Positions 2,501 through 4,494 of a stretch of DNA of 13,478 nucleotides are shown piece after piece. The stretch lies in UHGV virus genome UHGV-1998854. One strand, given 5' to 3'. Made by a program: the position numbers and the translations under genes. Numbering within the stretch: position 1 is the stretch's first letter; every line of letters starts with the position of its first letter. A model generated the notes under the pieces. The model saw only the letters and a program-made list of their open reading frames with translations, was not told the DNA's origin and made no database searches. Source of the stretch: a virus.

Positions 2501-3162
2501 GCGCCTTCTCCCTGTACCTGAATCAATGTGAGATTTCCGCAGAACACTGCGCCGGTATCGATATACATCTGGTTGGCAAATTTGAGTGGTTTCACTGCTT
2601 GCGTATGACCAAAGATGAACGTGTCCGCGCCTTTGATTTCTTTCACGATCCCGTCTTGTGAGTTGCTGATTCGTTCGCGGTTCCAGATTACCTGCTGATG
2701 ATCAACTGGCTTTCCAAACTCGTATTTATCACAAGGATAATCGGCGTGGCAGATGACATATTTTTTTCCTTTACTCACCAGTTCGATGATTAACGGAAGT
2801 TCATCTGCTTTATGGGCAAGAGCTTTAGCCAGAATTTCTTTGTCGTAATCGAGATTAAAGAACCAGCCACCGCCATTAAGCAGCCAGTGATTGACGTTTC
2901 CACGCTCTGATAAGCCATCAATCATCATTTGCTCATGGTTTCCACGTACAGCTCTGAACCAGGGGAATGTGATTAATTCCAGGCATTCTACGTTCTCTGT
3001 ACCGCGATCAACCAAATCGCCCACCGAGATAAGCAGGTCTTTTTTGGTGTCGAATCCTATCGTCTCCAGTTTTTTCATCAGGTTCGTGTAGCATCCGTGC
3101 AGATCGCCAACTACCCAAATATTTCGGTATTTGCTGCCATCAATTCTTTCGTAGATATTCAT
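2497..3162 (-). CDS. ninI: Serine/threonine protein phosphatase (lambda ORF221 / PP-lambda type, calcineurin-like metallophosphoesterase)
   Basis: 221-aa translation contains the metallophosphatase signature motifs GDLHG, GDLVDRG and GNHE. Length and sequence match the lambda phosphatase as recalled. Translationally coupled (ATGA overlap) to ninG upstream and Q downstream. Confidence 0.92.
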
Positions 3163-3761
3163 GCAACCTCACTTCTGCTGTTTCGCAGTTTTTTAAGTTT
3201 CTGTTGATACTCCGCCTTGATGGCCCTGCACTCTTCGACAGTCCAGCGATAGCGGTTATGGTTTGATTCGATTTCCTCTACTGCTTCCTGCCCGATGCGG
3301 CTAATCAGTTCGACGCGATACGGAACGAGATTTCCGCTTTTGTGCTGGTTGCACACCACGCATTGCTTGTGAATATTGCGTTCATCAAATCGGAGTTGAG
3401 GTGCCGCAGCAGTTGTCCGGTAATGTCCGGCATCCCACTGAGCAGACGTGAGCGTTCCGCACGAGATACATGGTAAGTCGCGGTCTCTTTCTCTGATGAA
3501 GGCGTTTACGGCTTGTTGGGCTTGTTTAATCCAGTAACTGCGGGGCTTTAAGGCGAGTTTTCGAATCTTAAGTTTATCTTTCTGTTTCTGCTCCTCTCGT
3601 CGTCGTTTCTTCTCTGCTGCTTTTTCCGCTTTTTCGCGTTCTTTACTTCGTCGTTCGAGTGCTATCTTGGTTCCACAAATCTCATTACACCAATATTGAT
3701 TTTGATATTTTGGTATAAACCATTCATTGCAACATTTACATTTCCTTCGATAGATTCGCAT
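3159..3761 (-). CDS. ninG: NinG / Rap recombination endonuclease, with an N-terminus that diverges from lambda
   Basis: From [74 protein letters not shown]... onward it matches lambda NinG as recalled. Start placed at the internal Met ([15 protein letters not shown]...) because an AGGAG Shine-Dalgarno lies 5 nt upstream (minus strand cgaaAGGAGcacttATG). The longer ORF-track start at 3821 lacks an RBS. The first ~30 residues differ from the lambda N-terminus ([18 protein letters not shown]...). Confidence 0.85.
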
Positions 3762-4302
3762 AAGTGCTCCTTTCGTTGCCGGAAAAATCACCGTAATACT
3801 TATCTCGGGCTTCTTCAGCAACTAGTACCGCTAACTCCAGATCATCAAAGCATCCGAAGTGTTTACTCTTGCCATGGAATCCTAGCCTAACATTCCATTT
3901 TTTCTGTCGTTTGTGCCAAGTAACCCCTCTGCAACCTGATTTGCTATTCTTTCGGATCCTTATATTTCTTGAATTTTCTATTGGCAGGCATTCTCTTAAA
4001 TTTTCTGGCCTATTGTCGGTCCTAATTCCATTAACGTGGTCAATTTGACCAGCAGGCCAACGATTATGAGTTATGTAAAAAACTAAGACGTGAGTTTTAT
4101 ATCTACGCCCATCTATCATGATCATTGAATAACCGTTGGAATCAAAAGTTCCAGCAACACTATTTAATGCTATCCTTCCCTGAGTGGGAACTTTCCATCT
4201 AAATACCCCGGTAGATTTATCGAAACTTAGTAACTCAAATATCCTTTTAACAGTTAAATCTTCTCTTTTACGGTTACATCGTCTTCGCGCTGGTTTAGCC
4301 AT
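3736..4302 (-). CDS. HNH-family endonuclease with a C-terminal AP2-like DNA-binding domain (free-standing homing-endonuclease type), fused to the first 9 codons of lambda-type ninG
   Basis: Translation begins MAKPARRRC (the lambda NinG N-terminus) and then diverges. HNH motif: [31 protein letters not shown]2-like segment: [56 protein letters not shown] Shine-Dalgarno lies 9 nt upstream of the ATG at 4302. The 3' end overlaps the ninG start by 26 nt. The ORF stays open upstream to 4383, but that start has no RBS. Confidence 0.8.
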
Positions 4303-4494
4303 CGCCTTCTTCCTCCGTAATGGTTTTCTGAATTTGGCCACCTGAACAGAGCTCACCAAAGCTATGGATGTCGGTATTTCCACAATACCAAGATGGCGAA
4401 AATAACTGCATGATAAGCCTCAGGGAAAAGGGAAGACACTACCCCCGATAATTCAGAAACAAATCGAAATACATGAACTAAAGAAAAATCACAA

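Follow-up and report, generated by a model that had tools for sequence, protein, structure and literature searches.

The lambdoid prophage in the virus genome UHGV-1998854, analysed here over a stretch of 13,478 nucleotides (the window), raises the question of how a gene for an HNH endonuclease came to begin with the first codons of ninG, and in what form ninG itself has persisted behind it. The early-right operon of this prophage lies on the minus strand in the order cI/cro, O, P, ninB, dam, followed by ninG, the NinI phosphatase gene and Q, and all features of the insertion, the endonuclease gene and ninG described below are on this strand. NinG (Rap) of lambda is an endonuclease acting on branched DNA and Holliday junctions. 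Based on a comparison with lambda (J02459) and with related loci, we propose that a free-standing homing-endonuclease cassette of the HNH_3 plus AP2 type, similar to I-HmuI, has probably invaded the coding sequence of a lambda-type ninG (rap).

The insertion in ninG

A block of 596 nucleotides (nt) without a lambda counterpart, the inserted cassette (3678-4273), stands in for 64 nt of a lambda-type ninG, namely codons 11 to 32 (lambda 42461-42524). The block is low in GC (about 35-43%, compared with about 44-54% in the lambda-like ninG body). Upstream of it lies a lambda-like island (4274-4315) that comprises the last 21 nt of ninF, the ninG ribosome-binding site (RBS), the ATG at 4302 and the first 9 to 10 codons of ninG, and this island is identical to lambda 42419-42460 at 40 of 42 positions (pairwise E = 3e-14). 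Downstream, the homology to lambda picks up again at the codons for Cys29-Gly30-Thr31-Lys32, and the remaining ninG body, which forms the right homology flank (3159-3677), is 97.3% identical to lambda 42525-43043. An earlier interpretation of the locus, made from the sequence alone, had noted that the endonuclease open reading frame (ORF) opens with the exact NinG N-terminus MAKPARRRC, and that the ninG gene behind it combines a divergent N-terminus with a lambda-like body. The latter description is confirmed by the identity of the right flank, and the MAKPARRRC match is not a product of chance, since the identity holds at the DNA level and reaches into ninF.

The endonuclease ORF (3736-4302) encodes 188 residues, of which residues 1-9 are derived from NinG. 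The gene has no start of its own; it is read as a fusion to these residues from the signals of ninG, that is, the GGAGGA at 4311-4316, which is located 8 nt upstream of the ATG at 4302. The sequence-only reading had let the locus end at 4383, the GTG start given in a mechanical ORF list. However, the extension beginning at this GTG is not conserved at loci where ninF lies upstream, and the ATG at 4302 is therefore the supported start. In lambda, the ninF stop codon overlaps ninG codons 2-3; as the first ninG codons are kept, this stop codon is preserved as well.

ninG restarts within the cassette. As read directly from the sequence, and as previously recognized, translation can be re-initiated 26 nt before the end of the endonuclease ORF (overlap 3736-3761) from an initiation region (3762-3775) in which an AGGAG (3767-3771) and a 5-nt spacer precede the ATG at 3761. 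The last 110 nt of the cassette thus bring an AGGAG, an ATG and 28 codons of a NinG N-terminus, the latter forming a substitute ninG 5' segment of 84 nt with 29% GC (3678-3761). The substitute codons join the resident ninG body in frame, and a full-length NinG is therefore still encoded. No significant RNA structure was found around or hiding the ninG RBS (z = 0.41), and a search for promoters or terminators within the cassette gave none.

The resulting hybrid ninG (rap) ORF (3159-3761) is complete and encodes a protein of 200 residues, which matches Pfam NinG (PF05766) over residues 4-194 with E = 3.5e-84. Its overall identity to lambda NinG is 89%, and from residue 29 the two proteins are nearly the same. 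The start of the gene had been described as recoded; it specifies a different peptide, about half identical to that of lambda and four residues shorter, and its 44-55% nucleotide identity to lambda does not reflect synonymous recoding. All four zinc-ribbon cysteines (C8, C11, C25 and C29) are kept and align with those of the NinG proteins of lambda, Emek, SE16 and ES18. While the first cysteine pair has the spacing CxxxxC in lambda NinG/Rap, it is CxxC in the cassette-type protein, as in ES18 and SE16. The cassette-type protein starts with MR, resembling Emek in this respect, and its 5' segment is far more AT-rich than those of the other types.

The first 95 nt or so of ninG are hypervariable also among lambdoid phages that lack the endonuclease, including those of the lambda, Emek and ES18/SE16 types. 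At least four types of ninG 5' end can be distinguished if that of the cassette is included; those of lambda, Emek and ES18/SE16 are 54-69% identical to each other in this segment, compared with 90-100% over the next 300 nt, and all types converge near the Gly-Thr-Lys/Gln codons. Judged from these alignments, the right junction of the cassette coincides with a general mosaic boundary in ninG. ES18 and SE16 have an extra small ORF between ninF and ninG; the idea that these ORFs are degraded endonucleases was rejected, as they have no Pfam match. A further length polymorphism lies within the ninG body, where a 9-nt in-frame insertion in a Lys/Arg/Glu-rich stretch (3601-3651) distinguishes NinG proteins of 203 and 200 residues. 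Among the loci examined it is present in only some of the cassette-bearing alleles (L002, L015, L023, L026, L048 and L054).

Behind the NinG-derived residues the ORF switches in frame to a nuclease with HNH and AP2-like parts, in agreement with the sequence-only reading. The profile for HNH is well supported: Pfam HNH_3 (PF13392) scores 42.7 bits against a cut-off of 24.8 (E = 4.2e-11), and the PHROG family phrog_99, 'HNH endonuclease', is matched with E = 1.4e-71. The catalytic motif of the beta-beta-alpha-metal type covers residues 68-107 (3982-4101). An alignment with 14 metagenomic homologs shows no variation at D88, H89, N101 and N110, and among the copies of the cassette the only variants at or beside catalytic residues are the singletons N97T and N101S. 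Pfam AP2 (PF00847) reaches 22.2 bits (E = 1.8e-4) and remains below its cut-off of 33.3, a precomputed match to the same profile is present in several homologs, and a phmmer search of the nuclease against the PDB returned WRI1 at E = 0.19.

The AlphaFold model of the protein has a predicted local distance difference test score (pLDDT) of 87.8, with the first 10 residues poorly ordered. Its AP2-like domain (residues 123-171; 3790-3936) is a three-stranded sheet with a helix (strands 127-130, 135-142 and 145-152; helix 155-173 in the model). The best fold match in the PDB found by Foldseek is I-HmuI (1U3E), with a probability of 1.00 over 109 columns at an E-value of only 0.012, a TM-score of 0.37-0.40 and 18% identity. 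It is followed by the plant AP2/ERF domains of AtERF1 (1GCC), WRI1 and TEM1 AP2, with probabilities of 0.97-1.00 each, and AtERF1 superimposes with a root-mean-square deviation of 1.3 Å over 51 columns. The fold search on the predicted structure hence supports the presence of an AP2-like domain despite the sub-threshold profile score. I-HmuI of Bacillus phage SPO1 is an intron-encoded HNH nicking endonuclease with a helix-turn-helix DNA-binding domain at its C-terminus. The two proteins have the catalytic motif in common, whereas the protein of the window has an AP2-like domain and no intron location.

Homologs of the nuclease occur in more than 3000 phage records at less than 60% identity. 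Most of the carriers are virulent phages, among them T5-, T1- and T7-like ones; a genome often has several copies, and annotation as a homing endonuclease is frequent. Most of these alignments begin at query residue 10-27. The conserved core of the family starts at about residue 17, with the motif LxxLLxYDxxTGxFxW a few residues after the initiator Met of the homologs; the metagenomic homologs begin 2-12 residues before its LxxLLxYD part. The protein of the window has about 12 extra residues ahead of this core, and the NinG-derived leader is therefore an add-on. No relatives with identities between 99% and about 47% were found, and the species-representative genomes gave only one distant match, in a planctomycete.

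Junctions, diversity and distribution of the cassette

In all copies examined the junctions are the same, with ...CGATGTAA/CCGTAAAAG on the left and ...GAGATT/TGTGGAACC on the right. Written in a longer form, the left junction is ...CGAAGACGATGTAA/CCGTAAAAGAG in cassette-bearing alleles, and the empty alleles read ...TGTAA/AAACGATGAATGCC at this place. Alignment with endonuclease-free ninG alleles shows a single insertion point. Alleles with the cassette (HNH+) and without it (HNH-) are identical up to ...CGATGTAA and again from TGTGGAACC, and at loci with ninF upstream no difference is seen in the aligned 106 nt that lead up to the junction (L018 compared with L074 and L087 is an example). 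The cassette is either cleanly present or cleanly absent between flanks that are the same. The divergent 84 nt at the start of ninG had been regarded as part of a co-conversion tract; they are a fixed part of the cassette, bounded by the same two junctions in every copy. A variable right boundary, to which matches to partial segments seemed to point, was rejected because it turned out to be an IS2 insertion.

Within the cassette the nucleotide diversity (pi) is 0.001-0.007, whereas its flanks have values of 0.012-0.065, which makes the cassette 5-10 times less diverse than the surrounding DNA. Nearly all of the approximately 60 independent copies are intact; the variation comprises 12 nonsynonymous and 11 synonymous changes, one frameshift and one IS2 insertion. 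The latter is found in E. coli Z1323CEC0014 (L004), where IS2 lies in the substitute ninG segment 48 nt past the ATG. At another locus, on the metagenome contig PPYF01105303.1 (L101), ninG is broken after codon 25.

The flanks do not follow the presence of the cassette. Over the 519-nt ninG body, one HNH+ allele (L013) and one HNH- allele (L066) differ at a single position, while the bodies of HNH+ alleles differ from each other by up to 8% and are interspersed with HNH- alleles, that is, they are polyphyletic. All four allele combinations occur 33 nt to the right of the cassette and about 35 nt to its left. The r2 of cassette presence with single-nucleotide polymorphisms (SNPs) in the flanks is 0.02 at 33 nt and 0.01 at 66 nt. 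The cassette thus behaves as a unit, with invariant junctions and a nearly identical sequence everywhere, in diverse flanks that are common to cassette-free alleles. These patterns of variation indicate that its spread over the older, diverse flanks is recent.

The cassette is common in prophages of pathogenic E. coli. At a query coverage of at least 80% it is present in 538 of 5426 complete E. coli genomes (about 10%), many of them clonally related Shiga-toxin-producing E. coli (STEC), and the carriers include O157:H7, O145, O111, O26 and O103. An intact lambda-type ninG site is found in 832 E. coli genomes. The cluster of the HNH protein also includes members from Salmonella enterica. The databases contain the nuclease of hundreds of STEC, E. 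coli and Salmonella prophages only under the generic term "HNH endonuclease"; PGAP labels the genes of the cassette "HNH endonuclease" and "recombination protein NinG". Recognizing a discrete 596-nt cassette explains a recurrent variant in the length and N-terminus of ninG.

The substitute ninG 5' end and the nuclease gene occur together. When the 84-nt segment alone was used in a blastn search of E. coli, it was again found in 538 genomes, with the HNH gene alongside in the matches listed. A degenerate pattern for the peptide CKCCNEWF identified 55 loci in IMG/VR, and the HNH protein (at least 98.9% identity) is encoded at 54 of the 54 loci for which upstream sequence is available. In metagenomes the HNH gene is present at eight of eight true loci, one further match being due to chance, and a tblastn search of a phage collection with the substitute N-terminus returned four matches of 100%, all accompanied by the HNH gene, the next best match having 63%. 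Searches for a substitute N-terminus without the nuclease gave only partial copies of the same protein in a word-indexed protein search, and only generic zinc-ribbon repeat proteins among 1.84 billion representatives.

The surroundings of the cassette vary. At least three upstream contexts occur: an ORF of 590 residues on the reverse strand, as in this window and the Stx1 phages SH2026Stx1 and AU6Stx1; an intact ninF, as in Salmonella Infantis and many IMG/VR loci; and an IS30 remnant, as in an O157-type genome. Downstream of the cassette-bearing ninG there are at least three arrangements as well: NinI comes next at some loci, others have ninH and Q, and in a third group a small ORF separates ninH from Q. 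In the literature searched, no paper connects ninG of lambdoid or Stx phages with an HNH or homing endonuclease; the one candidate, on Mannheimia phages, was unrelated.

Homing and its alternatives

If the cassette is a homing element, as we think probable, its enzyme would cut lambda-type ninG genes without the cassette, at a site that lies in or overlaps the 64 nt missing from carriers. When two lambdoid genomes co-replicate, the break would be repaired from the carrier by way of the ninF/ninG-start and ninG-body flanks, and this repair would copy the cassette into the cut genome. Carriers would be immune, as their target stretch is replaced. The original hybrid would have arisen once from an AT-rich donor in which the nuclease gene was located just upstream of a divergent ninG, through a left join that was illegitimate, in frame and at ninG codon 10, and a right join that was homologous and within the ninG body. 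Expression of the nuclease would follow delayed-early transcription after induction or infection.

The sequence-only reading had seen in this locus the footprint of a homing event. The architecture, the presence/absence polymorphism and the low diversity of the cassette agree with this view, but other parts of the evidence do not, and several observations weigh against homing. Since endonuclease-free phages also vary at the 5' end of ninG, the divergence there is not diagnostic of homing. No co-conversion tract was detected: none of the flank positions is fixed among HNH+ alleles, and linked markers show no gradient, in flanks that are too similar to carry co-conversion markers. Invariant boundaries together with the lack of a gradient show a single origin with subsequent recombination, and not repeated homing as such. 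The linkage of the cassette with its flanks compares with a mean r2 of 0.32 for SNP pairs less than 35 nt apart, a comparison that includes only two to three SNPs near the junction. The clonality of many STEC carriers has to be considered as well, and no donor lineage for the cassette was found in the collections searched. Finally, both types of allele can be present in one chromosome. In E. coli strain 139 (NZ_CP028620.1; loci L093 and L094), the ninG with the cassette lies at 1.229 Mb and is preceded by an IS30 remnant, while the intact lambda-type gene at 3.741 Mb belongs to a second prophage; at most about 378 genomes (538 + 832 - 992) contain both. Both prophages of strain 139 look defective, which may be a reason for the coexistence; delayed-early expression after induction or infection would likewise explain why the two alleles coexist silently.

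Some of these points are the strength of an explanation without homing, in which the cassette is the relic of one old illegitimate insertion that now spreads by homologous recombination and by the clonal expansion of STEC, the nuclease being inactive or not directed at ninG. The single pair of junctions, the absence of variable co-conversion tracts and of flank markers fixed in HNH+ alleles, and the coexistence of both alleles in one genome are all expected from such a passive module. Mosaicism is moreover general at the ninG 5' segment, a hot spot for which endonuclease-free phages have at least three other types that share about the same boundary, and the nin region is mosaic overall, as seen in the replacement of neighbouring genes by the ORF of 590 residues and in the independent presence or absence of ninH. 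On the other hand, a passive module does not readily account for a cassette that is so much less diverse than its immediate flanks, for intact catalytic residues, or for the full length of nearly all independent copies. Exchange within about 35 nt on both sides is also unlikely to result from untargeted crossovers, with recurrent mutation as a possible source of the same pattern. Taken together, we regard passive spread as unlikely, though as the main alternative and an explanation that deserves serious consideration.

It is improbable that the nuclease has been domesticated, be it as an aid to NinG/Rap or Red recombination or as a weapon against lambdoid competitors, and is kept by selection. 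Its translation from the ninG start in a delayed-early operon, its presence in about a tenth of the complete E. coli genomes and a nonsynonymous/synonymous ratio that hints at some purifying selection would fit such a role. However, cassette-free phages, lambda included, are fully functional, and the family is typical of free-standing homing endonucleases, with several copies per T5-, T1- or T7-like genome. The protein shows no similarity to the terminase-associated HNH class, its gene is not near packaging genes, and the only PADLOC match is a faint one to the generic HNH motif of ZorE (E = 0.007). That the locus is an annotation artefact, in which MAKPARRRC arose by coincidence and the ORF is not a real gene, can hardly be maintained in view of the DNA match into ninF, the strong family matches, the confident structural model and an ORF that is intact in hundreds of genomes.

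A more far-reaching version of the homing explanation appears doubtful to us. It holds that the cassette would be a putative "self-repairing" element, which carries an immune, functional copy of its own target, takes over the start signals of the invaded gene and can thereby enter without an intron or intein; the hypervariability of the ninG 5' end might then be the footprint of an arms race between endonucleases and their targets.

Homing of the simpler kind has well-known parallels. Free-standing HNH and GIY-YIG endonucleases of T4-like phages (mobA-E, segA-G) spread by 'intronless homing' (PMC2988022). As in the window, these nuclease genes lie outside introns and inteins, are present or absent between related phages and overlap neighbouring ORFs, depending for their translation on coupled or weak starts. 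Their spread by double-strand-break repair and the immunity of carriers through a difference in the target would apply to the cassette by analogy. In contrast to the T4-like cases, the cassette resides in a temperate lambdoid prophage, its nuclease is fused to the first nine codons of the invaded gene, and the divergent sequence of the target region belongs invariably to the element instead of forming a variable co-conversion tract.

Endonuclease genes that split protein-coding genes are known as well, namely mobE in nrdA of Aeh1, mobA in gene 39/60 of T4 and a seg-like gene in gene 43 of phage 25 (PMC2988022). The insertions resemble each other in that an endonuclease gene lies inside a protein-coding gene whose function is kept. 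In those phages, however, the host protein consists of two polypeptides that reassemble, whereas NinG is encoded here as one polypeptide: the upstream piece of nine residues is left to the nuclease and a full replacement N-terminus is supplied, and NinG therefore stays in one piece. A mirror image of this design is reportedly found in the atp6 gene of Allomyces, for which Paquin and colleagues are said to have described, in 1994, a mitochondrial mobile ORF fused in frame that brings a foreign gene end and displaces the resident one. An endonuclease ORF and a substitute piece of the gene likewise come together in this case and leave a functional hybrid. In atp6 it is the C-terminal part that is exchanged, with the endonuclease behind the gene, whereas the ninG cassette exchanges the N-terminal part and has its endonuclease in front; the two cases also differ in nuclease family and genetic system.

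The cassette thus adds a case not described before to a well-known kind of mobile gene. Its architecture is unusual but has precedents, and it leaves the current understanding of homing endonucleases unchanged. It offers a compact example of harmless entry into a coding region by capture of the start codon and a built-in replacement segment. With lambda genetics, intronless homing in a temperate phage and the target of an AP2-type enzyme could be studied directly.

Neighbouring genes

The ninG stop overlaps the start of the NinI phosphatase gene (2497-3162). At the junction between the two genes, 5 nt (3154-3158, minus strand) are found in place of lambda 43044-43232, which comprises nearly all of ninH. 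The sequence-only reading had noted the missing ninH along with the insertion. That its loss belongs to the same event was rejected, as phages 434, 2B8 and phi458 lack ninH without having the HNH gene, and loci exist in which the cassette is accompanied by ninH; the absence of ninH is an independent, common polymorphism.

Upstream of the endonuclease gene, the plus-strand ORF of 590 residues (4871-6643; about 33% GC) occupies the place of ninC-ninF between dam and the HNH gene. The junction of this swap lies only 13 nt upstream of the ATG shared by the HNH gene and ninG. The ORF has no Pfam or PADLOC match and belongs to phrog_9230 (unknown function), and the same ORF is present in the Stx1 phage SH2026Stx1. 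Between it and the HNH gene there is a perfect hexanucleotide array, (AAATAG) x 9.8, at 4496-4554, and differences among related loci suggest that its copy number varies.

Stx phages have their toxin genes downstream of Q. At this place the window encodes a predicted membrane protein of 252 residues (881-1639, minus strand), which is assigned to phrog_1521 (unknown function) and has no PADLOC match. At the other end, two overlapping ORFs of 180 and 258 residues (12014-12556 and 12544-13320, plus strand) lie directly downstream of cI on the same strand, in the position of lambda rexAB. Both are of unknown function in PHROG, and they match the PADLOC candidate defence pair PDC-M24A (weakly, E = 0.0015) and PDC-M24B (E = 6e-7). 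The pair may be a defence system expressed in the lysogen.

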